Shown here: in pieces, positions 10,437 through 34,358 of the stretch
Layout of the letters: every line of letters begins with the position of its first letter
Position numbering within the stretch: the stretch's first letter is position 1
Assembly (NCBI GenBank): GCA_943355005.1
Contig: CALRDV010000001.1
Coordinates: forward strand, 242,059 to 306,058
DNA: 64,000 nucleotides
Reading direction: 5' to 3'
Source: Patescibacteria group bacterium
GTDB taxonomy: Bacteria; Patescibacteriota; Microgenomatia; UBA1400; MFAQ01
Program-made: the position numbers and the translations under genes
The notes under the pieces: generated by a model
What the model saw: only the letters and a program-made list of their open reading frames with translations
Told to the model about the DNA's origin: nothing
Database searches by the model: none

Positions 10437-10757
10437 CTAAAAAGTCAAAACTTTGTCGCTATCGGAAACTAAATTATAGAGATCTTCTAGTCCACCTGCC
10501 GGACATTCTTTGGCACTATTTTGCTTACGAATCATCATGCAGGTACCACAGGCAATAATTTTTCCGTTTGATTCAAGAAAATTTAGCACCTGCTTAGAGA
10601 CATTAAATTGATCAGAGCTATTCTTTTCGTATTCAACACCTTCACCAACTAAAAAGATTGAAACACTGTCACCTTTACTAAGTGACAGATTCGCTAATCT
10701 AAGCGCGTTCCAATTAGTTTCCGCAATGCTACTAGAAATAATTATTCCTAATTTCAT
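10437..10757 (-). CDS. DsrE/DsrF (YchN)-like small protein
   Basis: About 106 aa with a conserved Cys pair (IACGTC) near the C-terminus. It overlaps the upstream DUF305 gene by 4 nt. Confidence 0.45.
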   Translation of the reverse strand: MKLGIIISSSIAETNWNALRLANLSLSKGDSVSIFLVGEGVEYEKNSSDQFNVSKQVLNFLESNGKIIACGTCMMIRKQNSAKECPAGGLEDLYNLVSDSDKVLTF

Positions 10758-11383
10758 AATGATCCTTCCTCAAGCCAAGAACGCATTTGATCAATTTCCT
10801 TTTCCTGAGCTGTAATAATATTTTGACCAAGCGTCTTCATTTCCGAGCGATTTGTTCCAGAGAGAAGCATTTGTGCCATCATTACAGCCATTTGATGGTG
10901 AGGAATCATTTCTTGTAAGAAAGCTTCATCAAAGTTGGTAGAATTTTTTAATGATGTAATATCAGATGTACTACCTCCCATCATGCCGCCTTGCATCATA
11001 CCTCGTCCCATTCCCATGCCGACTGCAGAGTCTACTGGTACTTCTGCTTTATACCAGTCTTTGTACCAACCTTTCATCTGAGTAATTTCTTCAGATTGGC
11101 TTTTAATAATCGCGTTAGCAAGATTGAGTATATTAGTATTTTTGGAGCGTACCTGAGCGAGCTTTGCCATTTCAATAGCGCCTTCATGGTGTGGAATCAT
11201 CTGTTCAATAAAATGTTTATCTATAGCACTATTGATTGAAGAGGTGTTATTTCCTAGCCGGATACCCATCATTTGCATCATCCCGTAATTATTGTTATTC
11301 ACTACACTTGTTGTTAGCACAAAAGTTAATAGACTGCCTGCTAACAAACCTATGACTAGATAAAGAATTGATTGATTTTTCAT
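10754..11383 (-). CDS. DUF305 metal-resistance protein (two IPHH repeats), signal-anchored
   Basis: MIPHHEGAI and MIPHHQMAV repeats, an N-terminal TM segment and a Met/Gly-rich linker. Confidence 0.75.
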   Translation of the reverse strand: MKNQSILYLVIGLLAGSLLTFVLTTSVVNNNNYGMMQMMGIRLGNNTSSINSAIDKHFIEQMIPHHEGAIEMAKLAQVRSKNTNILNLANAIIKSQSEEITQMKGWYKDWYKAEVPVDSAVGMGMGRGMMQGGMMGGSTSDITSLKNSTNFDEAFLQEMIPHHQMAVMMAQMLLSGTNRSEMKTLGQNIITAQEKEIDQMRSWLEEGSL

Positions 11384-19690: not shown

Positions 19691-20683
19691 TCAATATTGG
19701 GAACTAAAATTTCTGAGAGATTGTTTCGACATGTGGCTTTGCATATCTAAGAGAGCCCTCTGACGGCACACTAGGGCGCAATTGTCGCTATTATCAGCAC
19801 ATAGCACAACTGCGTCACCACCTGATTCATGAAGCTCTATCGCTTTGACTGGAGTGACCATCAAGCCTACGAGAATTAGAAGCGAAATAATACTCAAGCT
19901 TAAATTTTTATAACCGATTTTATTGTAGGTAGTCTTCTGTGAATAAAGTGATTGAATCCTAGCTTCAAGGCTATCTTCAGAAATAATATCAGGGATAAAA
20001 GCAAAGTGTGGCATCGGTTCATATCTTAAAAGTTTTTTTAAGACCTCTCCGATCGACTTATTTTCACTCATTCCATATACCGCTTCAGAATCCGCATGGA
20101 TTTCCCTACCGGTACGATAAACTCTGACAAAATCTGAGATAACTGGGAAAAATGGAAATAATGATTCAATCATGCTGGCTATAAAAAGGGTTAATGAGTC
20201 TCTATGCTCCAAATGAGACTTTTCATGCCTAAGTATTACCTCAAGCTCATTCATACTCATGAGTTCAATCATCCCTGTTGATACATAAATCTTGGGGCTC
20301 GTGATGCCAAAGCAGAAAGCTTGAGGCTTATTTTGATTAATAACCGATACATGGTTAGTTAGCCCAACTTTATCCAAAAGATCCGCAAGACCTTCGTATT
20401 TATTTACCGCCTGCTTTTTAAGTCTTAGTTTAAGAGAATATATTGCGATGATAGTTTTGAGTATTTTAAACAGAGTAAATAATGCTCCAAAGAAGAGGAC
20501 TCCAACAATTATTTTTCCCAAATCACCAGGGAGATGTAGATTCAACGCATTAACCATTTCTTGACAATAATAGATACTGTGGTGAATCAGTATTTGAAAG
20601 TATTTAAATACGACAAAAAAATAACTTATCATCAAAAACGATAATAGACCGACAAAGCCTATCAAGTAATTATTTATTTTCAT
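19691..20683 (-). CDS. M56-family (BlaR1/MecR1-like) membrane metalloprotease. It lacks the penicillin-binding sensor domain and has a Cys-rich C-terminus.
   Basis: HEKSHLEHRD (HExxH), four TM segments and a C-terminal C-x6-C-x3-C motif. It overlaps the blaI-like gene. Confidence 0.7.
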   Translation of the reverse strand: MKINNYLIGFVGLLSFLMISYFFVVFKYFQILIHHSIYYCQEMVNALNLHLPGDLGKIIVGVLFFGALFTLFKILKTIIAIYSLKLRLKKQAVNKYEGLADLLDKVGLTNHVSVINQNKPQAFCFGITSPKIYVSTGMIELMSMNELEVILRHEKSHLEHRDSLTLFIASMIESLFPFFPVISDFVRVYRTGREIHADSEAVYGMSENKSIGEVLKKLLRYEPMPHFAFIPDIISEDSLEARIQSLYSQKTTYNKIGYKNLSLSIISLLILVGLMVTPVKAIELHESGGDAVVLCADNSDNCALVCRQRALLDMQSHMSKQSLRNFSSQY

Positions 20684-21125
20684 TATGTTTCTCCAAGAGT
20701 TCTAAAAAGTATTTTTTCTTTTCTTTGGGCAGCTCTTCAATTGATTCAGCAAATGAAGCGATCGCTGTATCTCCAAATGACTGAAAAAACTTATTAAAGA
20801 AGGAGCCAGCTATTGATTTGCTGTAATCCTCTTTAGAAATTTTTGGCGAGTAAAGAATGGCAAAGTCTTTATCGTTTCTTTTGAGTAAACCCTTCTCTTG
20901 AAGTCTTGAAAGTACGGTTGCAACGGTTGTGTATGCTAATTCTTTTGTTTCAGATATCTTTTTTAGTACATCACGGACTGAACATGAGTCGTTATCCCAA
21001 ACGATGTTCATTACTTCTTGTTCGAGTTCGCTCAAAGCTTTTATCTTCATATGTCTACTACAGATTGTAGAGACTACCATGAAACATATCAATAGATATT
21101 TGATAGCAGAGATTAATATCAACAA
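20670..21125 (-). CDS. BlaI/MecI/CopY-family transcriptional repressor. The likely true start is the ATG at 21050 (MKIKALSELEQ...).
   Basis: A winged-helix N-terminus typical of the penicillinase-repressor/CopY family. It is immediately upstream of the M56 gene. Confidence 0.75.
   Translation of the reverse strand: MLILISAIKYLLICFMVVSTICSRHMKIKALSELEQEVMNIVWDNDSCSVRDVLKKISETKELAYTTVATVLSRLQEKGLLKRNDKDFAILYSPKISKEDYSKSIAGSFFNKFFQSFGDTAIASFAESIEELPKEKKKYFLELLEKHNENK
21054..21077. promoter_or_regulatory. TACA/TGTA-type dyad (CTACA-GAT-TGTAG overlapping GTAG-AGA-CTAC), a putative BlaI/CopY-type operator
   Basis: Perfect palindromes read directly. They lie 4-27 nt upstream of the probable blaI/copY start. 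Confidence 0.45.
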
Positions 21126-21129
21126 GATG

Positions 21130-21173
21130 GCCCGTCCAGTCGCGATTAATTATTTATAATCGCCGTAACGGGC
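21130..21173. repeat. Nested inverted repeat (GCCCGT...GCGATTA-N8-TAATCGC...ACGGGC) between the copA stop and the blaI-like gene
   Basis: Read directly. It may be a terminator or insulator hairpin, or a second operator. Confidence 0.4.
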
Positions 21174-21196
21174 TATCTTGCCGTATTTTTTACGAA

Positions 21197-24100
21197 TTAT
21201 TTTGCTTCGCTAATTTTGAATCCTTCTTTAACAAAGTGGTAGTTATCAGCCACTGAGTTAGATTTTGCCAAGACTCCTGAAATGATCACGTCATTCCCGA
21301 AGAATCCGGAAATAGTGTCGCCTTCTTTGGTGAAAAGCTTTTCCTTCATCATCAATTGGGCTTCATCGTAGCCGATATACACTGGTGTGTATTTCTTGCC
21401 ACCAATATAGACAGTATTAAATCCATCGCTTGGGAGTTTACTAGCTAACTCCTTGGAGGAGGTGCCGTTGATCATATAAAACTGCTTTTCCATGCCTTCC
21501 GCAGTTTTGGCTAGGACTACGTTTTTATCGACCTGTACTTGACCGGTCTTTTCCTTATTTTCCATATTTGTAGGTGCGGCCATAGTAGAGCTGAACCTGG
21601 CAAACTCGATAAACAAGAAAGTGAACGCTATCATCATGACAGCTGGTGCAAACATTGAGATATAGTTCTTCTTTCCTGGCTTGTAACGGCGCAAGAGTAG
21701 TGAATTCCCTACAACTGACACAGAACTTAAAGCCATGGCAAGGCCTGCAAGCTCTGGCTTTAATACCAATCCGACGAACGAGAATATGCGTGCGGCAATT
21801 GGAATTCCGATGACGTTATAGAAGAGCGCAAAGAACATGTTTTGCTGTATCTTCTGTACGGTCGTTTTGGAAAGTTCCAATGCGTGCACAACATCCCGGA
21901 GATCATTTTTGATAATCACGATGCCACCAGTTTCCATGGCCACATCCGTGCCAGATCCCATGGCAATACCCAAATCAGCTTGAGCAAGTGCGGGTGCATC
22001 ATTAATACCATCTCCAACCATTGCTACTTTCTTACCAGCATCTTGAAGTTTTTTGACTTCATTAGCTTTGTCCTGAGGCAATACCTCTGCCAGAATGTTT
22101 GTTATGCCAACCTGAGAGGCAATGGCTTTGGCAGTTTTTGTATTGTCACCAGTAATCATCCAGACCTCGATACCCATTTTGGTAAGCATTTCAACGGCTT
22201 CTCGAGAAGTCTCCTTGACGGTATCGGCTACTCCAATGAATCCAAGAACTCCCTTTTTGGTCGCCAGAATCATGGCAGTTTTACCTTGTTCTTCCAGACG
22301 AGTGAGCTTTCGGTCGAATTTGGCTATGTCTAAGCCCAACGTATCAGTAATGAGCTTACGGTTGCCAAAGAAATACTCAACTTTTCCAATCGTTCCTTTT
22401 ACACCATGCCCTGGAATGGCTGAGAATTTATCCACTTCTTTGAGAACAACCCCTTCTTCCTGTGCATAAGAATATATGGCTTCAGCTAGTGGATGTTCAG
22501 ATTGCTTTTCGAGACTAGCCGAAATCATGAGCACTTCTTCCTCGTCAAGTTCCCCTAAGTCCTCTACATCCGTCACTTCGGGCTTGCCCTTGGTGATCGT
22601 GCCTGTTTTATCAAAAACAATAGTATTGATCTTGCTGGCACTCTCAAGAGGCTCTCCACCTTTGATGAGGATCCCATGCTCAGCACCAACCCCAGTACCT
22701 ACCATAATGGCCGTAGGGGTAGCTAGACCAAGCGCACACGGGCAAGCAATAACAATCACGGCAGTGAATGCCATAAGGGCAAATGAGAGTGGTGCCCCCA
22801 AGAAGAAGTACCAGACCACAAATGTGAGCGCAGCTATCGCGATAACGCCTGGTACAAAGTATGCAGAAATACGATCTGCTACTGCCTGAATAGGTGCTTT
22901 AGACCCCTGCGCATCCTCAACGAGGCGAATGATCTGGGATAAAGTGGTTTCCGATCCAATACGGGTTGCCATAAACTCGAAGCTACCTACTTTATTAATA
23001 GTTCCGCCGATAACCATATCATCAACATGTTTTTCAACCGGCATACTTTCTCCCGTGATCATTGATTCATCGACTGAGGAGGAACCTTTCATAATTACGC
23101 CGTCTACTGGAACCTTTTCTCCGGGACGAACCACAATAATGTCATTTTTCACAACCTGATCAGTTGGGATATCTAGAGTTTCACCATTTCGTATTACTCT
23201 GGCAGTTTTTGCCTGAAGTCCCATGAGTTTTTTAATTGCCTCACCAGTTCTTCCTTTTGCTTTTGCCTCGAGATATTTACCCAAGATGACAAAGGTGATT
23301 AAGAACGCTGCTGTTTCAAAATATAGCTCTGGAATCTTCGCTCCAGCCAATCCAATAAGAGAATTGGTGGTCGCGTAGTACTGAATAAAATTGACAGCAC
23401 TGTAAAAATACGCCACTGATGTACCTATGGCTATCAGGCTATCCATGTTAAAGGTACGCATCTTTAGAGCTGAAATCATACCTTTATAGAAGCTCGAGCC
23501 GGTAATAAATTGAACCGGAGTAGCTAAAATAAACGACACTATGCCTATATAAGGAAGAAGTGTTTTACCACCAGGCAAGAAACTAAAGAAATCAAGGAAC
23601 ATGAAATATATCATTGGGAAAGATAAGATCAGGGCAAACAAGAACTTTTTCCATTGCCCTTTGATTTCTGATAATTGACGCTTGGCTTGAGCTTGTGAAT
23701 CTTCTGAGCTGGCTAGCATTCCCTTATATCCAGCTTTTTCCACTGCTTTTATTAGATCATCAGTTTTTGCTGATCCAGTGTTATAGAGAATCGAAGCTTT
23801 TTCTGAGGCAAAATTAACTTTTGCTTCTGCAACTCCCGGAACTTTCTTTAATTGACGTTCGATAATAGATGCACACGATGAGCAGTGCATGCCTGAAATA
23901 ACTAGGCTAGTCCGTTCTGTTTTACCTGTTAGGGCAACTTGTGATACAACGCCTTCAGATGTTATGGATTGTCCAGATTCTGTTCTTTGTGCTGATCCGA
24001 AACGCAAGATTCCTTTAATTGTCCAGTGTCCATCCTCGTCTTGGCCTACTTTACCGTCAATTTCAATTTCTGGAGGAAGTGTAAATAATGGCGTTGCTTG

Positions 24101-24340
24101 CTGTGCAAGGTTCATGCCTGTTTTTCCCACGATGAGACTCTGATACCCGGCACTTTTTACCGCGTCTATAATCGCCTGATCGGTTACCTGGCCATTGGTA
24201 GTGATAATTGTTGCTTTTCCAGCTTTGTGATCGACACTCACATCTTTGATCCCCGGAAGGGAAATAAGTTCGTCTTTAATCAGCATTTCGCATGATTGGC
24301 AGTGCATTCCTTTAATATCTAAGTTGATTGTTCTTTTCAT
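21197..24340 (-). CDS. copA: Cu(I)-translocating P1B-1 ATPase CopA with two N-terminal HMA domains, plus an extra C-terminal TM helix and a C-terminal domain of about 150 aa
   Basis: GMHCQSCE and [25 protein letters not shown] and [10 protein letters not shown]. After the canonical last TM there is another hydrophobic helix ([23 protein letters not shown]) and then a Met-containing soluble domain. Confidence 0.9.
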
Positions 24341-24352
24341 ATGTTTTTTGTT

Positions 24353-24556
24353 TTAAATGGTTTTATATGGTGTATCTTTCAATACGTTATTAATTTCTTG
24401 GGCAGAAATTTCTCGATTTGCCTCGATTGCTACCAGTCCGGTTTCAATCGTAGTTTCAACATTTGTAACGCCATCCAGCCCTCCTATTCTTTTTTCAGTA
24501 ATTTTTTTACAGGCTGGGCAGGTAAGGCCTGATAATTTAATGGTTTGTTTTTTCAT
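24353..24556 (-). CDS. copZ: Copper chaperone CopZ (HMA domain)
   Basis: GLTCPACKKITE; 67 aa. Confidence 0.8.
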   Translation of the reverse strand: MKKQTIKLSGLTCPACKKITEKRIGGLDGVTNVETTIETGLVAIEANREISAQEINNVLKDTPYKTI

Positions 24557-24567
24557 AATTTCCTCCT

Positions 24568-26382
24568 TTAAATAACTTGTATTTGACCTCTTTGCATCCC
24601 CATACCACAGGTAATGTTGTATGTTCCTTTACTCGTTGGGGTAAATTCAAAGACTACTTTTTCTCCTTTGGTTAATATTTCAATCTTTTGAGTGAGCGTG
24701 GGTACCGTAATGCTTCCCATGCACCCCTGACCATCTTCCTTGGCATCAATTTCAAATCGTACAGGTTGGTTTGCCTTGACGGTAAAGGTGTTTGGCTGGA
24801 TGTCACTGCTTGCGGTGTATGTCGTTTTGATAAGTTGGACATTTCCTTGGTTGACCGTTTCGCCCGCAGGTAAATTGTTATTTTGTGCAATAACCTGCTT
24901 TTTGGCACCGCAACCACACCCTCCGCCACTAGCACTGCACGAACCCGCCGCCTGTGTATTTTGTGTTTGTGTCGTACTGGCTATTTGGGTGGTAGATGGG
25001 GCACTGCCAGTTTCATCAACTACTGTGAACGATCCGGTATACATCCCCATGAGACATGAGAAACGAATGGTGCCTGTTTCTTTGGGAGTGAACTCAAAGA
25101 CATTTTCTCCGAGCTCTAAGCTTTTACGAATACCAAGCTGTTGGGAAACAATGCTGCTGGCACAGGAATAGATATCCTTTGATGTTACTATCCATTTAAC
25201 GGGAATACCTTTTTTAATCGTGAATTTATTCGGTGAATAGCCAGATGATGCTTGAGTCATACGGACAACTTGCACCCCATTTACCATAGTGACATTTGGA
25301 TCAGACTTTGCAGTCGCCTTTGAAGTAACTGCACCAAGTACCTGTGGAACACCCAGGAGATTTAATCCATTTCCGACATTAAAAAATGCAAGCATAATGA
25401 CGACCACTCCAGCTGTTTTGAAGAATAATCTCGCGCCATTTCCCTTGACGACTGATGTTAATCCGCCAACTCCCAAGAGACCAGGTGCTGTACCGAGGGC
25501 AAACACACCCATCGTTAAAGCTCCTTGTATGGGACTACCAGTACTCATAGCAAAGAGTTGCATTGCTTGGGTAAAGCCACAGGGGAGAAAGAAAGTAGTA
25601 GCTCCCATGATAGCTGCGTTTTTATTGCTATATTCAAGTTGCGTTTTCTCAGCAATACCAAGCATCCTGGATAATCCCTTGGGAAGAGTAAAGGATACTT
25701 TTTTCAAGATAGGAAAGATGTCGATTAACTGGCCTCCAAGAAGAAGCATAACTAATCCAACGGCTACCGTTAATAAACCAAGAACTGACGTGGATAATTG
25801 AAAGAATGATCCGGCTAACCCGATAACGCCACCAAGAATGGTATATGAAATGATTCTTCCAAGATTGAAAAACAAATGCGGCTTGAACTTTTCCATACCT
25901 GTTGCATTGGGGAATTGCTCAGAAAACCGAGATGAGGCACCAAGAACTAAGCCTCCAACGAGCGCCATACACGTAGAGACGCCAGCAGTTAAACCGACCA
26001 AGAAAACAATGGGAAGGCTAGAGTAACTACCTGAGATCGACTTACTTAGATCGAAAAGTCCGACGGATTTTGCAATTAGAAATAATGCAGTGGTGATAAA
26101 GAAAGCTATACCGACATCAATGTAGTCTCTGTGATTGCGGGAAAAGAAATGAATTTTGCCGTCTTCGCCAATCGTATAACCAGCTTTTTCAATAGCTTGC
26201 TTAACTTCGTTACCATCTAACTCACAGTCGCAGTTCACATCAGCAATTCCTGTTTTATGATTCACATAAACAGACTGGACGCCACGAACTTTTTTAAGTT
26301 CATCTTCAATTAATATCTCGCATGATCGGCAATGCATTCCTTTGATTTGGATTTTTTGTTTGCTCATTGTTAGAGCATACAA
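24568..26382 (-). CDS. Fusion protein: N-terminal HMA domain, DsbD_2/TauE-like polytopic membrane domain, and two C-terminal cupredoxin-like beta-sandwich repeats (C...C-x-MGM motif)
   Basis: GMHCRSCE; a multi-TM core with an intramembrane PCG motif; two about 75-aa repeats ending in FSCLMGMYTG and ITCGMGMQRG. The probable start is the ATG at 26367. Confidence 0.6.
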   Translation of the reverse strand: MYALTMSKQKIQIKGMHCRSCEILIEDELKKVRGVQSVYVNHKTGIADVNCDCELDGNEVKQAIEKAGYTIGEDGKIHFFSRNHRDYIDVGIAFFITTALFLIAKSVGLFDLSKSISGSYSSLPIVFLVGLTAGVSTCMALVGGLVLGASSRFSEQFPNATGMEKFKPHLFFNLGRIISYTILGGVIGLAGSFFQLSTSVLGLLTVAVGLVMLLLGGQLIDIFPILKKVSFTLPKGLSRMLGIAEKTQLEYSNKNAAIMGATTFFLPCGFTQAMQLFAMSTGSPIQGALTMGVFALGTAPGLLGVGGLTSVVKGNGARLFFKTAGVVVIMLAFFNVGNGLNLLGVPQVLGAVTSKATAKSDPNVTMVNGVQVVRMTQASSGYSPNKFTIKKGIPVKWIVTSKDIYSCASSIVSQQLGIRKSLELGENVFEFTPKETGTIRFSCLMGMYTGSFTVVDETGSAPSTTQIASTTQTQNTQAAGSCSASGGGCGCGAKKQVIAQNNNLPAGETVNQGNVQLIKTTYTASSDIQPNTFTVKANQPVRFEIDAKEDGQGCMGSITVPTLTQKIEILTKGEKVVFEFTPTSKGTYNITCGMGMQRGQIQVI

Positions 26383-26390
26383 GAGCCGGT

Positions 26391-26410
26391 ATTAAGATTT
26401 TATGAAGATT
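26391..26410. promoter_or_regulatory. Island motif copy 1: ATTAAGATTTTATGAAGATT, upstream of the HMA-DsbD_2 fusion/copZ/copA operon
   Basis: Exact 20-mer shared with copy 5, 8-23 nt from the start codon. Confidence 0.6.
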
Positions 26411-26431
26411 TGTGAGGAAGATTTAAAACTT

Positions 26432-28675
26432 TCAGACAGTTATCAAGTCTTTTTCAGCTCGTTTCAGGAGTACTGCGTTTGTAGCCACGATAATTGAAGA
26501 AATACTCATAAGAAGCGCGGAAAATTCTGGGCGTAAAGTGATACCATAGCGTGGATAGAGTACCCCAGCAGCGATTGGGATTGCCAAGATATTGTAAATA
26601 CTTGCCCAGACTAGGTTTTCCTTCATTTTTCTGACTGTGGCTTTAGAAAGTCGGATTGCTCGTAATATATCGGCAGGATCTGATTTCATGAGGACCACCT
26701 TGGCCGTTTCTATGGCTACATCGGTTCCTGCACCAATTGCAATCCCAATATCGGCCTGAGCCAAAGCTGGGGCATCATTTACCCCGTCGCCAACCATGGC
26801 AGTAAATTTACCCTCTGATTGGAGTTTCTTTACATACGAGGCTTTGTCTTCCGGTAATACTTCAGCAAAAATTCTATCTATACCCAGTTCTTTCCCAATC
26901 GCTTCAGCAGTTTTTTTATTGTCTCCGGTAATCATGGCAACTTCGAGTCCCATTTCCTTCATGCGGGTAACAGCTATTTTGGCGTTTGCCTTAATTGGAT
27001 CAGAGGCAGCGGCGACACCTGCGATTTTTTTATCTACTGCAAGTATCATGATCGTTTTTCCTTCTGAGAGCAGGCGGTCAATATCAGTTTGTAAGGTTGT
27101 CGTGTCTACTTTCCAGTCATTCATGAGCCTTGTTGTACCAACAAGCACATGTTTGCCATTTACTATAGCCTCAACGCCATGACCGGCAAGGTTATTGAAT
27201 TTTTCTACCTTTGATGGAACAACAATCTTTCTTCGCTTCGCTTCCTCAAGGATAGCCATGCTTAATGGGTGAGAAGATTTGGCCTCAGCAGCACTGTCCA
27301 GCTCAATTATTTGATCCTCTGTGAAGCCTTTGGCTGCCACTACGTCGGTTATGCGAGGCTTTCCTTCGGTGAGTGTGCCGGTTTTATCCAGTACTACCGA
27401 TTGTATCTTTGATACCTGTTCAAGAGTTGGTGCATCTTTGATGAGAATGTTATGTTTCGCACCAAGTCCCGTACCTACAGCTACCGCAGTTGGGGTGGCC
27501 AACCCAAGCGCATCTGGGCAAGCAATGACGACGGTCGAGATTGCAAAAGTAAGTGCTAATAGGAGAGGTTGCCCAAGTACAAAAAACCAGACGGTAAAAG
27601 TCAAGAGTCCACCACCAACAGCCACAATTACTAAATACTTTGCAAACTGATCAGCAATTTTTTGTCCGGGGGCTTTGGAGTTTTGAGCGGTTTCTACCAT
27701 CTTCACAATTTGGGCGAGCGCTGTATCTTCTCCAACCTTAGTCGCCTTAAACTTTACAGAACCCGAGGTGTTAATTGATCCGCCAATGACAGAATCTCCA
27801 ATCGACTTGGAAACAGGTAGCGATTCGCCTGTGACGAGCGATTCGTCGATGGCAGTCTCTCCCTCGATAATCTCACCATCAACAGGCACTTTATCACCAG
27901 GTTTTAAGATCAATATGTCACCAAGCACAATACTCGCTGTTGGAACCATTGATTCCACTCCATTTTTCCATAATCTGGCTTGCGGGGGAACAAGGTTAAA
28001 TAAGGCCTGAAGTGCATCGGTGGTGCCACGACGTGACTTCATTTCCATCCAATGGCCAAAGAGGACGAAAGTGATAAGCATCGCAGCAGCTTCATAATAT
28101 GAGTCACTACTTCCAAGGAGCGTTAAAACAACACTAAATCCGTAGGCAGCCGTAATACCCACAGCGATAAGAACCGACATGCCGAGGCGAAGCGTCTTGA
28201 GCTCAAAATAGGATGAATATAAGAATAACCAACCGCTATAGAAGAATACTGGCGTGGTAAGAATAAAAAGTAACCAAGGAATAGGTAGCGGGGATGGTAA
28301 ATTCCAGCCAAACATCGTTCGACCCATTGAATAAGCAAGAATTGGGATCGTAAGAAGTAGTGCGAAGAAGAATTTGTTTCTGATATCTTCTTCCATCAGT
28401 TTCGCCATTTCTCGTCCGGCGAGTCCCGTATGATCCATACCCATGGTCATAGTCATACTCATTTTGAGTTTTTCCCAAATGGACATCTCGGACGTTAGTT
28501 TCATCGTATGAGCTTTATGTTCCGAATGACCCATCTCTTCATGGTTCATTTCAACAGGAACGAGCGTCATGCCACACTTGGGACACTTCCCTGGCTTTTC
28601 TTTCCTGATTTCTGGATGCATCGTGCAGGTATACATGGTCATTTCCATAGGTTTCATACTTACTTCATTATGCAT
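26432..28675 (-). CDS. P1B-type Cu/Ag ATPase with an N-terminal HMBD (C-x-MHPE...GKCPKCGM) and a Met-rich segment. It has an unusual CPD transmembrane motif.
   Basis: [44 protein letters not shown] (verified in DNA), DKTGTLT and GDGVNDAPAL. Confidence 0.85.
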   Translation of the reverse strand: MHNEVSMKPMEMTMYTCTMHPEIRKEKPGKCPKCGMTLVPVEMNHEEMGHSEHKAHTMKLTSEMSIWEKLKMSMTMTMGMDHTGLAGREMAKLMEEDIRNKFFFALLLTIPILAYSMGRTMFGWNLPSPLPIPWLLFILTTPVFFYSGWLFLYSSYFELKTLRLGMSVLIAVGITAAYGFSVVLTLLGSSDSYYEAAAMLITFVLFGHWMEMKSRRGTTDALQALFNLVPPQARLWKNGVESMVPTASIVLGDILILKPGDKVPVDGEIIEGETAIDESLVTGESLPVSKSIGDSVIGGSINTSGSVKFKATKVGEDTALAQIVKMVETAQNSKAPGQKIADQFAKYLVIVAVGGGLLTFTVWFFVLGQPLLLALTFAISTVVIACPDALGLATPTAVAVGTGLGAKHNILIKDAPTLEQVSKIQSVVLDKTGTLTEGKPRITDVVAAKGFTEDQIIELDSAAEAKSSHPLSMAILEEAKRRKIVVPSKVEKFNNLAGHGVEAIVNGKHVLVGTTRLMNDWKVDTTTLQTDIDRLLSEGKTIMILAVDKKIAGVAAASDPIKANAKIAVTRMKEMGLEVAMITGDNKKTAEAIGKELGIDRIFAEVLPEDKASYVKKLQSEGKFTAMVGDGVNDAPALAQADIGIAIGAGTDVAIETAKVVLMKSDPADILRAIRLSKATVRKMKENLVWASIYNILAIPIAAGVLYPRYGITLRPEFSALLMSISSIIVATNAVLLKRAEKDLITV

Positions 28676-28684
28676 GCATTTGTT

Positions 28685-29209
28685 TTATTGCACAAACTTA
28701 CAATGTCCACGAATTTTTTGTTCAAATTTCTGAGGGTCAGCGAGGTTTGAAAGCAGGATTTGATCGAGATAATCGCCAGGAGCACTTATTTCTATGACAA
28801 TATCTCCGAAATTAAAGATTTTCCCCAATATACCCTGATTAATTGTAATTGAGCGAATATTGTCTAGATCAAATGTCTTTTCAATCACACTCATAATGCC
28901 ATCTCGTTTGACAAGGTGGGCGTCGTCGATAAAGTAAGAGCTACCGATCCATTTCATAACAAATTTCAACACAAATATGACCTGAAAGATGCTCTTTCCA
29001 ATATGAAGCATCGCTAAGATAAAGATGATATATCTATGGGTATCAAAAGGTAAAACTCCTTGCAAAAAATACACTTTCATCAAAAAGAAGTTAATTATGC
29101 TGTAGATAAGGTCGGTAAAAACAAGCAGACTGACGAGCTGTATGGCTAACGTTGCTACACTCGCCCTAATTGGTTCCCTGTTTGACATAGTGTTTGTTTC
29201 TTGATTCAT
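28685..29209 (-). CDS. Membrane-flanked bacterial PH-domain protein (YdbS/bPH_2-like)
   Basis: Two TM segments followed by a bPH_2-like C-terminal domain. Confidence 0.4.
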   Translation of the reverse strand: MNQETNTMSNREPIRASVATLAIQLVSLLVFTDLIYSIINFFLMKVYFLQGVLPFDTHRYIIFILAMLHIGKSIFQVIFVLKFVMKWIGSSYFIDDAHLVKRDGIMSVIEKTFDLDNIRSITINQGILGKIFNFGDIVIEISAPGDYLDQILLSNLADPQKFEQKIRGHCKFVQ

Positions 29210-29220
29210 AAGTTACCTAA

Positions 29221-29901
29221 TTAGATATTCGCAGAGGCAGGTTTGATTATTAATCTCTGTAGTACCTGCTGGGGCGATGGGATAAATGCAGATGTACGTT
29301 TTAAGTATCGTGTATAGGAAATGCCAAACTGCTTGTACATCTCCAGTTCTTCAGTCTTTGCAAGGCGGAAGTATCTCCATATAAGAACCGGCGCCATGAG
29401 TAACGTGATAAGTGTCGGCCACTGCACAAGAAATCCAAGGATGATGAGGATGAAAGCTAAATACTGAGGGTGTCGAATATATGTATAAATTCCGGACGTT
29501 GCTAGTTTTTGTCTTTTTTGAGCTTTGTACAATATCTCCCACGCATTAGCCAGGAGAGAGAATCCGCCAATAATAAGGGCATAACTGATGATATGAAGGA
29601 TGCTAAAGTGTGGATCACCCTTGATTCCTAAAAGCGTATTGAGGATGTGACCATTATCATGGGTGAAATCTAAACCAAGTTTTTTACCAAAAAATGATGT
29701 TAATAAATATATTGTGAGCGGGAAGCCATACATTTCTGCAAATAAGGCAACGATAAATGCCCCGAAGGTATGATATGTTCGCCAATCTGTTTTTGTTCTT
29801 GGCTTAAACGAACTTTTTAAGAAATAGAGAAATATACCGATATTGAGAAAAACGAGTAACCAGTTTCCATAGTCATACATATATCCGCAGTCTAGCAACA
29901 C
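29221..29901 (-). CDS. Isoprenylcysteine carboxyl methyltransferase (ICMT/PEMT)-family membrane methyltransferase
   Basis: YIRHPQY motif and a multi-TM segment. Confidence 0.6.
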   Translation of the reverse strand: MLLDCGYMYDYGNWLLVFLNIGIFLYFLKSSFKPRTKTDWRTYHTFGAFIVALFAEMYGFPLTIYLLTSFFGKKLGLDFTHDNGHILNTLLGIKGDPHFSILHIISYALIIGGFSLLANAWEILYKAQKRQKLATSGIYTYIRHPQYLAFILIILGFLVQWPTLITLLMAPVLIWRYFRLAKTEELEMYKQFGISYTRYLKRTSAFIPSPQQVLQRLIIKPASANI

Positions 29902-29947
29902 ATGTATGAAGAAATCGTGAGCTTAGGATTAATTCCGGGTGAAGAAA

Positions 29948-30046
29948 TTACTTTCCATTTTCTTCAAGAACTAAATCCATGCCACATTTTGGGCACTTAC
30001 CCGGCTCATCTTCTCTCACTTCCGGATGCATTGAGCAGGTATACAT
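29948..30046 (-). CDS. 32-aa free-standing heavy-metal-binding-domain mini-protein ([32 protein letters not shown])
   Basis: ATG..TAA ORF starting 2 nt after the DUF305 stop. It is about 70% identical to the N-terminal HMBD of the ATPase at 26432-28675. It is below the ORF-track length cutoff. Confidence 0.5.
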
Positions 30047-30048
30047 AT

Positions 30049-30696
30049 TTATTTATTCCAATTGGCAAGCCATGATCTCATCATTTCTATTTCACGAGTT
30101 TGAGCAGTGACAATATCGTCTGCTAGTTTTTTCATTTCAGGACGAGTCGTGCCATCCTTTAACATGCTTGCCATCATCACGGCCATTTGATGGTGTGGAA
30201 TCATGTCTTCAACAAAAGCGCGGTCAAAATCTTGAGCATCTTCTAGTCGTGTTGCGTCTGAGTCGTTGCCCATCATTCCCATATGCATGGAGGACGTGCT
30301 ACCCATCATGCCGTGCTGGTTCATGACTGCTCTGCCTGTAGGTAGGTCTTTCCCAAACCAAGATTTGTACCAAGATTTCATCTGGTCGATTTCTTTGCCT
30401 TGAGAATCAATTATGTTCTCTGCCAGCTGTTTTACTTCCGGAGTCTTAGCCTTTGTTTGAGCGAGCTTAGCCATGGTAATGGCATCCTCGTGATGAGGGA
30501 TCATTTGCTCGATAAAGTGGGCGTCAAGCTGGGAAGATTGCGTATTATTTGACTGATTAAAAGAAGAGAATCCCATCATTCGCATCATGCCGTAATTATT
30601 TGACCGGACACCTGAAGATATACTCAACCAGACCAGTACACCGCCGATAATCACACCTACAAATCCATACGTTATGTTATTATTTTTCATGTTCAC
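30049..30696 (-). CDS. DUF305 metal-resistance protein (second paralog)
   Basis: MIPHHEDAI and MIPHHQMAV repeats and an N-terminal anchor. Confidence 0.75.
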
Positions 30697-30767
30697 CCTC
30701 CTTAAGTTTCCAGATATAACAAGTCTTATCCCATCATACTACACGGGAGGAAATATGTTTCAAAGAG

Positions 30768-31157
30768 CTATTTAACAATGAGCGTGCCATTACCCATATT
30801 ATTTGCACAGTGCATCCTAAATTGTCCTGGTTTATCTGCAATAAATTCCAGCACATTACTTTCCGGGGTTATGTCTTTGCTTAATTCATAACCATCAATA
30901 ATAAGTCTACCCATGGATCCGGTGAGTGTGTTTGAATCTGCTTCGATTCTCACTTTTGTACCTAATTTTACCTTGACTGTTTTTGGTGTGTAATCGCCGT
31001 TTTGTAGGCTGGACAGTTTAATAGTTGTTAATTCATCTGTTTGAACAACATTATTTTGAGTATCTGTTTTCAGGTCAACTGGACTTGTCTGTTTCCATAT
31101 AATGAAGCCGGAAATAATTAGTACTACTACGATGATGAGCGGTTTATTTATTTTCAT
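30768..31157 (-). CDS. Secreted or anchored cupredoxin-like single-domain protein (RMHCANNMGNG)
   Basis: A signal anchor and a beta-sandwich homologous to the C-terminal repeats of the protein at 24568-26382. Confidence 0.5.
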   Translation of the reverse strand: MKINKPLIIVVVLIISGFIIWKQTSPVDLKTDTQNNVVQTDELTTIKLSSLQNGDYTPKTVKVKLGTKVRIEADSNTLTGSMGRLIIDGYELSKDITPESNVLEFIADKPGQFRMHCANNMGNGTLIVK

Positions 31158-31181
31158 ATAATTAATTTTACCGATTTAGTT

Positions 31182-31201
31182 ATTAAGAATTTATGAAGAT
31201 A
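31182..31201. promoter_or_regulatory. Island motif copy 2: ATTAAGAATTTATGAAGATA, upstream of the cupredoxin-like gene
   Basis: 18/20 match to the consensus. Confidence 0.55.
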
Positions 31202-31204
31202 GAG

Positions 31205-31432
31205 CTAGTGCTTATGTCCGCCATTTCGCATCATTAATATATGCATGAGTGGGCATGCTAGTATTGCTCCAAAGTACACCACATTTGTTAGTGGTACTGC
31301 GAATACTTTAACTGCTATTAATATCACCACAGCTACTCCTAGGCATATAAGCAGCCATTTTGTCTTTTTTTGAGTATTCTCATTGGTTGAATGATCCATT
31401 TTTGAATGATCCATATCTAACCTCCTTACCAT
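31205..31432 (-). CDS. DUF2933-like small membrane protein (ACPLMHILMMRNGGHKH)
   Basis: One TM segment and the C-terminal CPLMH..MM..GH motif typical of metal-island DUF2933 proteins. Confidence 0.5.
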   Translation of the reverse strand: MVRRLDMDHSKMDHSTNENTQKKTKWLLICLGVAVVILIAVKVFAVPLTNVVYFGAILACPLMHILMMRNGGHKH

Positions 31433-31449
31433 GATTATAGAAAAGACCA

Positions 31450-31469
31450 GATTAAGAAAGTATGAAGAT
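31450..31469. promoter_or_regulatory. Island motif copy 3: ATTAAGAAAGTATGAAGATT, upstream of the DUF2933 gene
   Basis: 17/20 match. Confidence 0.55.
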
Positions 31470-32929
31470 TAGGACTTGGCTTTCAGAGGAAGCGATATGG
31501 TGACGTGTGTTCCCTTACCGACTTTGCTTGCTATTGAAATAGTGCCACCGTGGGACTCTATGATTCCTTGAGCAATTGCGAGTCCAAGACCTGAGCCAAG
31601 TGTTTTAGCAGTTTTTGACCCACGATAGAAACGGTCGAATATATGGGGTAGGTCTTTTTCTAGAATGCCATTGCCTGAATCAATAACTTCAACCACCGCC
31701 TCACTGTTTTTGGTACGCAGAAAAATAGAAATTGTCTCATTCTTCGGCGTATATTTCACTGCGTTATCGAGGATATTAAGAATTGCGCGGGAAAGTTTGT
31801 CTTCTGATCCGGTAACCTGAATGCCTTCGGCAATATGACTTTTGACCGTGATATGTTTTTGAGCGGCTAGTTTGACGGCAATATCTTTCAGTTCCACAAG
31901 TACAGCCGTAAGATCAGTTTGTTGATTCGTACTTATTGCCTTGTCGGCGCCGATCCACGCTAAATCGAGAATGTTTCTGATCGTAGTAGACAATCGATTG
32001 ACATCGATAAGTGTTTCTCCAAACGCATTTTTATATTCCTCATTCGTGCGTTTTTTTGACAACGCTAACTCAATTTCTCCTTTTAACGTAGCTACTGGTG
32101 TTTTCAGTTCATGGGCAACGTCACCGATAAATTGACGTTCTCTTTTAAAAGATTCGTGAAGTCTTTGGAGTAATTCGTTAAACGTTACTGCAAGTTCTGA
32201 CACTTCATCTTCGGTATTGGGAACAGCTACGTGTCGATTCAAATCTTGGCTAGTAATTGATTGGAGGTCTGAAGATATCTTCTGAATCGGTTGTAAGGCG
32301 CTTTTTGCCAGTAAATAGCTCCCGATTATTGCAGGGATTGCGATAAGGAGATAAACCGCGGTCAGAGTCAAAATCAGGCTTTTGAAGGAGTCGTAGATTG
32401 CATCAACCGGATCACCCATAAAAATAAGACCGTTCGATTCACCATTTTGTATTATGGGGAATACGCCAATCCGGAGTGTTGTTGTGCCAATACGGCGTTC
32501 TACAAAGGTAGGTTTTATGATATTACTGGACTTTTCAATAAGGTCTTTAAGTATAGTATTTTCGTCCGCTCCGACTTGAGAACTGCCCGTAATTTTCCCG
32601 GATTTGTCGGTAATAAGGACGAGCATTCCCGGCATTTCCATAAATTGCTGACTAATAATTCCTTGGTTAAAAACTCCTTGAGCCATGCTCGGCTGTTCAT
32701 CTCCCACCATCTTCGTTAGCGTTTCTGCATGGGCAATGATCGAACGGTCTGTTTGGTTAAGAAGTGTCTGCTTGGTGATGTAGAAAAATACGGCAAAAAC
32801 AATAGCTGTACTGACAAAGAAAGCAATTGAATACCAAAGTGTTAGACGAAATCGGATTGATTTTTTATTCATGTTATCCAATCTTATACCCCACGCCGTG
32901 AACGGTCTGGATAAGCTTAACCTTTGCAC
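31469..32929 (-). CDS. Sensor histidine kinase (two TM segments, periplasmic domain, HAMP, HisKA, HATPase_c). The likely start is at 32872.
   Basis: H-box VAHELKTP and G1/G2 boxes (DSGNGI, GSGLGLAIA). Confidence 0.85.
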   Translation of the reverse strand: MQRLSLSRPFTAWGIRLDNMNKKSIRFRLTLWYSIAFFVSTAIVFAVFFYITKQTLLNQTDRSIIAHAETLTKMVGDEQPSMAQGVFNQGIISQQFMEMPGMLVLITDKSGKITGSSQVGADENTILKDLIEKSSNIIKPTFVERRIGTTTLRIGVFPIIQNGESNGLIFMGDPVDAIYDSFKSLILTLTAVYLLIAIPAIIGSYLLAKSALQPIQKISSDLQSITSQDLNRHVAVPNTEDEVSELAVTFNELLQRLHESFKRERQFIGDVAHELKTPVATLKGEIELALSKKRTNEEYKNAFGETLIDVNRLSTTIRNILDLAWIGADKAISTNQQTDLTAVLVELKDIAVKLAAQKHITVKSHIAEGIQVTGSEDKLSRAILNILDNAVKYTPKNETISIFLRTKNSEAVVEVIDSGNGILEKDLPHIFDRFYRGSKTAKTLGSGLGLAIAQGIIESHGGTISIASKVGKGTHVTISLPLKAKS

Positions 32930-33539
32930 CGGTATCTACTTTTTTCCTGAGAGTGCCGACAAACACATCAACCACGTTACTCATACCATCAAAATTGTAA
33001 TCCCAGACATGCTCGATAATCATCGTACGTGATACGACTTCTCCCTTATGGCGCATAAGGAGCTCAAGAACCGCAAATTCTTTCGGGGTGAGGGTGATAG
33101 CCTTATTCGCTCTTTGCACACTGTGTTTTAGTGGATCGAGAATAAGATCATTTTCAGACAAAATCGGTGATATATCCTGATGACTGCGGCGAATGAGGGC
33201 GTGTACTCGTGAGCGAAACTCAACGAAAGAGAATGGCTTGGTTATATAGTCGTCAGCACCGCTATCAAGTCCGGCGACTTTATCTTCTAATGTAGATTTA
33301 GCGGTGAGCATAAGCACAGGGGTCTTAATACTCTTTTTACGCAGTTCTTTACACACTTGTAGACCGTCAAGTTTGGGAAGCATGATATCGAGCACAATAA
33401 GGTCGTACTGCTCACTTTCGGCCAAATATTGACCTTCTTCACCGTCAAATGCTTGATCAACAGCAAAGCCGTCCTCGATAAAACCCTTTTTGATGATATT
33501 GGAGAGACGACGTTCGTCTTCGACAATTAAGACTCTCAT
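32874..33539 (-). CDS. OmpR-family response regulator (REC domain plus winged helix)
   Basis: MRVLIVEDE...DIMLPKLDG...; C-terminal trans_reg_C domain. Confidence 0.9.
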   Translation of the reverse strand: MRVLIVEDERRLSNIIKKGFIEDGFAVDQAFDGEEGQYLAESEQYDLIVLDIMLPKLDGLQVCKELRKKSIKTPVLMLTAKSTLEDKVAGLDSGADDYITKPFSFVEFRSRVHALIRRSHQDISPILSENDLILDPLKHSVQRANKAITLTPKEFAVLELLMRHKGEVVSRTMIIEHVWDYNFDGMSNVVDVFVGTLRKKVDTGAKVKLIQTVHGVGYKIG

Positions 33540-33550
33540 GAATCTATTAT

Positions 33551-33580
33551 ATTAAAAATTCATGAAGAAATCATTAAGAC
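33551..33580. promoter_or_regulatory. Island motif copy 4: ATTAAAAATTCATGAAGAAA plus a third half-site (TCATTAAGAC), upstream of the response-regulator gene
   Basis: Three AAGA-type half-sites at about 11-bp phasing. Confidence 0.5.
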
Positions 33581-33592
33581 TCGGTTTTAGGT

Positions 33593-33859
33593 CTACTTTT
33601 TTAGAAAGCTGTTATAGCTTGCGGCAAAGAGATAACCAGCAACCCACGCGGACGCGACCGCCGATATTAGCCCCACGATAAAGTTCCCTGTTGATATGCT
33701 CCAAGAGCCAATCGTGAGCCCATGGAACCAGGATTGTGCAATAGACATCATAAGATCAGGAAATAGACCGACCAACAGTCTACATACTACGTAGATAATA
33801 CCGACCGTTGTTGCGGCTGCGTTTGCTGTGGTCATAGGATTATGTTTCATGATGTTCAC
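33593..33859 (-). CDS. Small membrane protein, unknown
   Basis: ORF with two hydrophobic helices. Confidence 0.25.
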   Translation of the reverse strand: MNIMKHNPMTTANAAATTVGIIYVVCRLLVGLFPDLMMSIAQSWFHGLTIGSWSISTGNFIVGLISAVASAWVAGYLFAASYNSFLKK

Positions 33860-34358
33860 CTCCCTCTATACGAATAAAATATTTTTGCGTTCCGTAGAGC
33901 ATTTGTTGGACACACCATTTGGCATACCATCCGCTTAACAGCTTGCCAAGCCAGACGAAAGATTTTGGCAATTCATAGTCAATGGATACGGTAAGCTTAG
34001 AGCCCGAGCCATCAGGTTCAATTTCTACTTTCATCTGATACTGACCGATGATGAGAAGCTTTGGAGTGCCGACTGTTTTCCAAACCTTACGGTGTGGTGG
34101 AACATGCTCAGTTACCACTTCGTCCAGCGATATATAGATTCCAAACACTTTGCCGTCCATTTTGATATGAGATCCTACAGCCTTCCCTTTAAGCTCATCA
34201 ACATAGGTGTTCATTTTGCCGCCACCCATCATTGGACTTGCGGTATTCATGTGGGAGGAAAATTTATTATGGTCGTCGATATAATCAAATACTTCAGAAG
34301 GGGCAGCTAAAATCTTTGCGCTTTCACTATATGTGCGAACCTTCGATTGTGATGTCAT
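33840..34358 (-). CDS. SRPBCC-like hypothetical protein
   Basis: Weak fold-level resemblance. Confidence 0.35.
   Translation of the reverse strand: MTSQSKVRTYSESAKILAAPSEVFDYIDDHNKFSSHMNTASPMMGGGKMNTYVDELKGKAVGSHIKMDGKVFGIYISLDEVVTEHVPPHRKVWKTVGTPKLLIIGQYQMKVEIEPDGSGSKLTVSIDYELPKSFVWLGKLLSGWYAKWCVQQMLYGTQKYFIRIEGGEHHET

Follow-up and report, generated by a model that had tools for sequence, protein, structure and literature searches.

What does a reading frame of 32 codons encode when it sits directly behind a DUF305 gene in a bacterial copper locus, and is it a gene at all? In the 64,000-nucleotide stretch of Patescibacteria DNA analysed here (hereafter, the window), such a frame runs on the minus strand from an ATG at 30046 to a TAA stop at 29948-29950, and its ATG lies exactly 2 nt past the TAA stop of DUF305 (30049-30051). 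These coordinates, including both start and stop, are confirmed and agree with the original prediction, according to which the frame specifies a free-standing heavy-metal-binding domain (HMBD) translationally coupled to DUF305, and represents either a small metallochaperone or the degraded 5' end of an ATPase gene. We estimate at about 0.65 the probability that the frame is functional and encodes a free-standing, Cu(I)-binding HMBD microprotein that is coupled to DUF305 and serves as a chaperone or sensor for the HMBD-CopA ATPase encoded nearby. The narrower claim that the frame is a real protein-coding gene of a stand-alone HMBD family is, in our judgement, very probably correct. The evidence and the competing explanations are described below; the features of the locus are summarized in Table 1.

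The locus and the short reading frame

The genes around the frame make up a large copper-homeostasis cluster. In the order of the minus strand, a response regulator, a histidine kinase, a DUF2933-like gene, a cupredoxin-like gene and DUF305 precede the 32-aa HMBD frame, which is followed by an ICMT/PEMT methyltransferase, a bPH_2 protein, an HMBD-CopA ATPase, an HMA-CcdA/DsbD-cupredoxin protein, a CopZ-like protein, a two-HMA ATPase and a BlaI/CopY-like repressor. At the N-terminus of the DUF305/CopM protein lies a membrane or signal segment. The gene behind the HMBD-CopA ATPase has a syntenic counterpart at the same place in relatives, and its equivalent in the related locus L165 comprises HMA, DsbD_2 and Cupredoxin_1 domains. 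Related loci (designated here by L and a number) come from metagenome-assembled genomes (MAGs) of Levyibacteriota, Gottesman-, Roizman-, Davies- and Chisholmbacteria, which places the window among the Microgenomates within the Patescibacteria.

Table 1. Features of the copper cluster that surrounds the 32-codon frame, listed from the upstream to the downstream end of the minus strand.
Feature	Position in the window	Strand	Evidence or remark
Response regulator	32874..33539	-	
Histidine kinase	31469..32929	-	
DUF2933-like gene	31205..31432	-	
Cupredoxin-like protein	30768..31157	-	upstream of DUF305
DUF305/CopM-family gene	30049..30696	-	Pfam DUF305, E 6e-45; NCBIfam CopM metallochaperone family
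32-codon stand-alone HMBD gene (very probable)	29948..30046	-	Pfam HMBD, AF2 model, dN/dS well below 1
Spacer, 67 nt, from the small frame to ICMT	29881..29947	-	no ATPase-like codons
ICMT/PEMT-family membrane methyltransferase, 219 aa from ATG at 29880	29221..29880	-	domain match; P0154 99% identical, 219 aa
bPH_2 (bacterial PH domain) membrane protein	28685..29209	-	
P1B-type copper ATPase; residues 15-41, near its N-terminus, form an HMBD	26432..28675	-	
Membrane protein with HMA domain, CcdA/DsbD-like domain and cupredoxin-like region	24568..26382	-	
Classical CopZ-like HMA protein, 67 aa	24353..24556	-	directly upstream of the two-HMA ATPase
ATPase with two HMA domains	21197..24340	-	
BlaI/CopY-like repressor	20670..21125	-	

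Several further observations pertain to this cluster and its relatives. Two pairs of a free domain and a pump are present in the window, namely, a free HMA protein with an HMA pump (20670-24556, minus strand) and, in the region of the small frame, a free HMBD with an HMBD pump. The histidine kinase frame, read from a GTG start at 32929, overlaps the 3' end of the response regulator by 56 nt (32874-32929), and the overlap in L001 is similar; the true start of the kinase is probably located further downstream. A second DUF305 gene (10754..11383, minus strand, 209 aa) shares a 4-nt ATGA overlap with a 106-aa gene of the DsrE/DsrF family (10437..10757), so that the pair of DUF305 and a DsrE-like partner originally pointed out at 10437-11383 is indeed there. 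L001, L002, L004 and many other related loci come from MAG records of "uncultured Gammaproteobacteria/Pseudomonadales" that carry the Patescibacteria-type copper cluster, with proteins 60-93% identical, and these taxonomic labels look unreliable. Scans for promoter and terminator consensus sequences yielded nothing better than was obtained with shuffled sequence, and an Rfam scan of positions 24000-34000 returned no match.

The similarity of roughly 70% between the predicted peptide and the HMBD of the resident ATPase was borne out, with 21 of 30 amino acids (70%) identical to residues 14-43 of the pump. The assignment to the HMBD family holds as well: Pfam HMBD (PF19335) is matched end to end (profile positions 2-26 of 28) and, because the score is 58.4 bits (E 6.7e-16) against a gathering cutoff of 23.6 bits, the resemblance is far beyond chance. 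At the DNA level, 66 of 90 nucleotides (73%) are shared with the ATPase HMBD, including only 16 of the 30 third codon positions (53%), which rules out a recent duplication of the resident domain. An exact-sequence look-up in a public gene-position index found no called gene for the 32-aa product, and the window copy was thus rightly described as unannotated. The protein contains no signal peptide and therefore should be cytoplasmic; of the two adjacent gene products, only DUF305 possesses an N-terminal membrane segment.

Stand-alone HMBD genes in Patescibacteria

A search with a 41-aa extended version of the frame from L001 retrieved P0151, a called gene of 40 aa with the same tail, and a second search was performed with a profile of five stand-alone copies. 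At least 18 clusters (at 90% identity) of stand-alone HMBD proteins were found, 37-42 aa in length and sharing the tail DLVLEE; they are unnamed or "hypothetical" in their sources, yet are labelled PF19335. The tail of the window protein, DLVLEENGK followed by the stop, aligns with 18 of these stand-alone family members, and the protein conforms to the pattern of the family, that is, one HMBD and a short acidic and lysine-containing tail, with the stop within about 10 codons. The stand-alone Patescibacteria proteins P0151, P0331, P0369 and P0383 are 61-78% identical to the window protein and share with it the tail and the copper-cluster context. In a search of representative proteins, the best 150 of 8684 matches were all multi-HMBD repeat proteins, which makes this sample uninformative on single-domain forms.

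All stand-alone HMBD genes examined, in L081, L087, L165-170, L171-174 and L175-180, reside in copper clusters, usually after a multicopper oxidase and YtkA. Downstream, the genes that recur are those for ICMT, bPH_2 and the HMBD-ATPase, an arrangement that several loci have in common with the window. In L087 and L165-170, genes for a BlaI-like protein, an M56 peptidase, a DsbA-like protein, a multicopper oxidase and YtkA are followed by the HMBD gene (37 aa), ICMT, bPH_2, the HMBD-ATPase and HMA-DsbD, and the window order from HMBD through ICMT, bPH_2 and HMBD-ATPase to HMA-DsbD is matched in L087 and L165-166. In L171-180, the small gene comes after YtkA or an alpha/beta hydrolase and is the last in the operon, and in L081 it is located between a gene for an HXXEE protein and a truncated ICMT. 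L085 and L086, in which ICMT is 89-94% identical, lack the small gene, and the YtkA stop runs into the conserved leader of ICMT. The small gene is, then, dispensable, being absent from these close relatives of the ICMT-ATPase module and, since L085 and L086 retain that module without it, it is an accessory, separately inherited unit rather than a by-product of one junction.

Conserved stand-alone HMBD genes thus exist in several lineages, as the comparison with related genomes recommended along with the original prediction was meant to reveal. The window frame is a newly recognised, previously uncalled member of an existing, uncharacterised stand-alone HMBD family. What was already known includes the HMBD family, its structure in cis and the called single-domain free forms that are labelled by Pfam. 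A full-text literature search with the motif recovered only A. baumannii CopA/CueA and no account of stand-alone HMBD forms; the PF19335 label that appears in work on APE1/PCC1 refers to a ferredoxin-like chaperone with an MxCxxC motif, hence not to an HMBD, and was discarded.

Some members of the family, or of its neighbourhood, are of separate interest. In L019 (7689-8713), the gene for a stand-alone HMBD protein of 49 aa overlaps the beginning of one for a class I SAM methyltransferase (Methyltransf_25), and a Cys-rich 77-aa frame that matches nothing in Pfam comes before the HMBD gene; a free HMBD thus occurs beside a methyltransferase for a second time. In L081 (667-813 and downstream), the ICMT that follows the HMBD ends after 48 codons; the genes beyond it, for DUF2958, a DNA methylase, a restriction enzyme of the NgoFVII type and a protein kinase, look like an insertion of mobile DNA.

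Selection on the protein

Over the common 25-28 codons of the stand-alone genes, dN is 0.05-0.23, dS is saturated or greater than 0.7 in most pairs, and dN/dS, where computable, is 0.03-0.25. The genes in L001 and L081 differ at 13 nucleotides and 2 amino acids (dN/dS 0.03), the value for L081 and L087 is 0.15, and the window copy differs from that of L175 at 19 nucleotides and 3 amino acids, with dS saturated and the ratio not computable. Across 22 sequences, ten residues never vary (Y2, C4, M6, H7, E9, C18, C21, G22, L25 and V26). Judging from these codon comparisons, the stand-alone HMBD genes are subject to purifying selection at the protein level.

L001, the one close relative of the window copy, contains an intact frame, an identical junction with DUF305 and all ligand residues, and its DUF305 is 93% identical to that of the window. 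The two small frames differ at 6 nucleotides, with three synonymous changes and the replacements E14K and K17S at variable positions; this pair provides no statistical power for detecting selection because the adjacent non-coding spacer is equally conserved.

The possibility of an ATPase remnant

Could the frame be the degraded 5' end of a P1B-ATPase gene that was left behind when ICMT and bPH_2 were inserted between DUF305 and the ATPase? The idea is not without a basis, given that in L003, L020 and L024, which are otherwise syntenic with the window (response regulator, histidine kinase, DUF2933, cupredoxin, DUF305), an HMBD-ATPase starts 3-4 nt after the DUF305 stop, so that the small frame occupies the very site of the ATPase 5' end in these loci and shares the unusual motif YTCSMHPEV with the ATPase of L003. 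The junction between DUF305 and the frame may derive from a DUF305-ATPase arrangement of the L003 type. What follows the frame is nonetheless not what a decaying pump gene would leave: across 29881-29950 no ATPase-like codons occur in any frame, and phmmer with the ATPase as the query finds the HMBD only. The search for ATPase remnants downstream, which had been proposed as a check, thus came out negative in all three frames of the 67 nt that separate the frame from ICMT. Moreover, the frame ends in DLVLEEN(GK) and is followed by a conserved leader, both of them features of the stand-alone family rather than of an ATPase linker, the stand-alone genes show strong purifying selection with conserved stop positions, and the 73% DNA identity to the resident ATPase HMBD, with 53% at third positions, is incompatible with a recent duplication.

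A genuine truncated ATPase N-terminus, which provides a control, is found in L010 (3551-3784), where a 77-aa frame contains the HMBD followed by the ATPase linker DHAGLAGREM and then unrelated sequence; the window frame lacks this linker. We consider the pseudogene reading largely refuted by these comparisons and assign it a very low probability. Of the two readings initially left side by side, the stand-alone HMBD, that is, the candidate small metallochaperone, is the one favoured by conservation and purifying selection, whereas the degraded ATPase end is unsupported.

Predicted fold and putative ligands

An AlphaFold2 model of the 32-aa protein, for which 21 sequences were used, averages 90.3 in pLDDT, and its top match in Foldseek is 8OVL (TM 0.74, rmsd 1.1 A over 28 columns, 61% identity), with the N-terminal site of SilB (5A4G) among the further matches. 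By sequence, the N-terminal domain of Legionella CopA (8OVL and 3RFU) is matched in the PDB. As in 8OVL, the predicted fold combines an antiparallel sheet of three strands with a rubredoxin-knuckle loop. All residues of the CxMH...CPxCGM signature are present (C4, M6, H7, C18, P19, C21, G22 and M23), and the putative ligands C4, M6, H7, C18, C21 and M23 correspond to C42, M44, H45, C56, C59 and M61 of LpCopA.

For LpCopA, NMR and ICP-MS have demonstrated that Ag+/Cu+ is held by three residues of the structured core (residues 35-68), M44, C59 and M61, with C42, H45 and C56 close to the metal site in a zinc-ribbon-like arrangement (PMC11970713). Binding of Cu(I) or Ag(I) by the 32-aa protein is inferred from the conservation of these ligands together with the LpCopA data (PMC11970713). 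The correspondence is not complete throughout the family. In P0331 (37 aa; L087, 3110-3223, and L165-L170; 21 contigs), a lysine occupies the position equivalent to M61 of LpCopA, within CPKCGK and, judging from this replacement, the tri-sulfur site is not universal among free HMBD proteins.

The known systems that resemble the window protein differ from it in distinct ways. The LpCopA core (LpMBDcore, residues 35-68; 8OVL, 3RFU) belongs to the same Pfam family, PF19335, and shares the CxMH...CPxCGM signature and 61% identity over 28 positions but is embedded in a 736-aa pump behind an autoinhibitory tail and functions as a copper sensor in cis, whereas the window HMBD is a whole protein of 32 aa with neither tail nor tether. 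The N-terminal site of SilB/CusB-type RND adaptors (5A4G) has the same knuckle fold (rmsd 1.4 A over 24 positions), and P0153 is an exported, lipoprotein-like single HMBD encoded beside a CusAB-type operon (an RND copper/silver exporter); in contrast to the window protein, which has no signal peptide, these are periplasmic, with either a signal peptide or a fusion to the adaptor. The chaperones CopZ and Atx1, which consist of an HMA domain (PF00403), are comparable by functional analogy only: CopZ is about twice as long as the window protein, the latter has no match to PF00403, and its predicted fold differs from the ferredoxin-like fold of HMA with its MxCxxC loop.

The junction with DUF305

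In the other copies of the family, a Shine-Dalgarno sequence (AAAGGAGGTG, AAAGGTGGTG, AGCGAGGTG) precedes the ATG at a distance of 8-10 nt, and the protein starts with M[DE]EKQQx. Both features are missing from the copies in the window and L001, where the 3' end of DUF305 (attggaataaataaatATG) lies upstream, across a 2-nt gap, and the product starts with M-Y-T-C. We class these two as a family variant, truncated and re-coupled, that lost its own Shine-Dalgarno sequence and about the first seven codons. Translational coupling to DUF305, as originally proposed, appears plausible because of the 2-nt gap combined with the lack of a Shine-Dalgarno sequence. The notion of DUF305 as the partner of the small protein fared less well: the junction is specific to one lineage, being found only in the window and L001 among 81 DUF305 loci, and elsewhere the gene upstream of the small HMBD encodes YtkA, a hydrolase or an HXXEE protein, and the small gene has its own Shine-Dalgarno sequence.

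In relatives, genes headed by an HMBD begin 0-4 nt past the DUF305 stop (L003:6634, L020:6634, L024:1871, L015:6607, L060:1239, L066:6592 and L067:2201) and encode a CopA ATPase or fusions to DUF4396 or MauE-like proteins, which suggests a recurrent expression link from DUF305 to HMBD. As to the origin of the window junction, one possibility is recombination of an L003-type DUF305-ATPase junction with an L087-type stand-alone gene; the sequence YTCSMHPEV shared by the frame and the L003 ATPase hints at such an event but does not prove it.

Lacking the Shine-Dalgarno sequence and the seven N-terminal residues, and with the first beta-strand shortened, the window copy could be poorly expressed or less stable. 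Taken further, this leads to another explanation, namely, that the family is real whereas the window copy is a silent relic, which lost its Shine-Dalgarno sequence and N-terminus behind DUF305 after recombination and is no longer translated. The features just described, the presence of a Shine-Dalgarno sequence in all other copies, the lack of a database call for the product and the equal conservation of frame and spacer between the window and L001, from which pair no evidence of selection can be drawn, are all compatible with a relic. However, the frame and all its ligands are intact in two genomes in which the DUF305 proteins differ by 7%, and the changes that accumulated between the two copies are either synonymous or confined to variable positions. 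Furthermore, the 2-nt distance between stop and start is the classic geometry of reinitiation, similar to that of the HMBD-headed genes after DUF305 in relatives, and the AF2 fold of the 32-mer is still confident. A silent relic is, we believe, unlikely, and an expressed truncated variant is the reading that we retain.

The methyltransferase and its leader

Just before the ICMT start, a segment of about 45 nt (29881-29925, minus strand), CTCACGATTTCTTCATA.ATGT.TTG.TAGACT..., hardly varies among six loci, namely, the window, L001, L081, L085, L086 and L087, which differ in the upstream gene and in whether the small frame is present. This segment, which has no match in Rfam, may be a promoter, an operator or a 5' leader.

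The proximity of this element raises the possibility that the frame is a regulatory upstream ORF, or leader peptide, the translation of which, rather than its product, controls the ICMT-bPH_2-ATPase genes. The frame is short, it lies directly upstream of the conserved leader, and the operon should respond to metal. Yet purifying selection acts on the amino acids and the metal ligands, the fold is predicted with confidence, there are family members without the downstream genes, and the same leader is conserved in L085 and L086, which have no such frame; a purely regulatory function of translation is highly improbable.

Alternatively, the microprotein might be a metal-sensing subunit that acts in trans on the ICMT methyltransferase, on bPH_2 or on both, rather than a partner of the ATPase; it would then be the split form of an architecture in which an HMBD is fused to a membrane protein. 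The small gene is succeeded by ICMT, with the conserved leader, in the window, L001, L081, L087 and L165-170; in loci of this kind, HMBDs are fused to diverse membrane proteins (ATPase, DUF4396 and MauE); the stand-alone HMBD of L019 overlaps the start of another methyltransferase; and the ICMT-family proteins CzcN and NccN are known members of metal-resistance determinants, in which they are functionally unexplained (PMC7563307). No HMBD-ICMT fusion was detected, however, among the best 120 of 7999 ICMT homologues, most ICMT loci lack the small gene, and the small genes of L171-180 end their operons with no ICMT adjacent. These latter two facts also dispose of a strict linkage of the small gene to ICMT. 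We regard a subunit of ICMT or bPH_2 as a decidedly unlikely role. A related candidate, in which the frame would be the leading part of an HMBD-ICMT fusion that has been split, did not hold up given the lack of such fusions in the same set of 120 homologues, the different reading frames with stops in between, and the same structure in L001.

Proposed role of the free HMBD

The preferred reading, a Cu(I)-handling microprotein associated with the HMBD pump, would work as follows. Ribosomes that terminate at the DUF305 stop would probably reinitiate at the ATG of the frame, since it starts only 2 nt further on, and the small protein would be co-expressed with the copper-responsive operon. In the cytoplasm, it would bind Cu(I), most likely via Met6, Cys21 and Met23, with Cys4, His7 and Cys18 adjacent. 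The free HMBD would buffer cytoplasmic Cu(I) and either hand it over to, or signal the copper load to, the HMBD-CopA ATPase encoded three genes downstream, where the target would be the pump's own HMBD or the transport site. The analogy behind this proposed partnership is offered by the window itself, in which a CopZ-like HMA gene adjoins that of an HMA-ATPase. Provided that the 32-aa protein is expressed, we consider the odds of this chaperone or sensor mechanism to be even. The pure chaperone variant is weakened by the conclusion reached for LpCopA, the HMBD of which is a copper sensor that relieves autoinhibition and is regulatory rather than involved in ion delivery (PMC11970713).

More speculatively, free HMBDs of 32-42 aa might constitute a second, CopZ-independent class of cytoplasmic Cu(I) chaperones or sensors that pair specifically with HMBD-type P1B-ATPases, and the window copy would then be the smallest metallochaperone known, made only by reinitiation after DUF305/CopM. 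The pairing with pumps that carry the "TCPMHPE" signature, of the LpCopA/CueA/SilP type, would mirror that of CopZ with HMA-type pumps; the motif "TCPMHPEIR" characterizes the LpCopA/CueA/SilP-type pumps (PMC6387184). This general scheme is doubtful as a whole, and we offer it tentatively. If it holds, reinitiation after DUF305/CopM would tie the dosage of the microprotein to that of an extracytoplasmic copper-binding protein.

Implications

Very small proteins routinely escape gene callers, and the window copy is missing from the public gene calls; annotation pipelines would do well to retain HMBD-positive frames of about 30-40 codons in copper loci. The HMBD has so far been studied only within pumps (LpCopA) or adaptors (SilB). 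If the free form is a chaperone or sensor, it would provide a minimal, chemically synthesisable model of Cu(I) handling, and a second fold would come under the rule by which a free chaperone resembles the N-terminal domain of its pump. The maintenance of a free HMBD, under selection, in the copper clusters of Patescibacteria, organisms with reduced genomes, suggests that this domain can act in trans.
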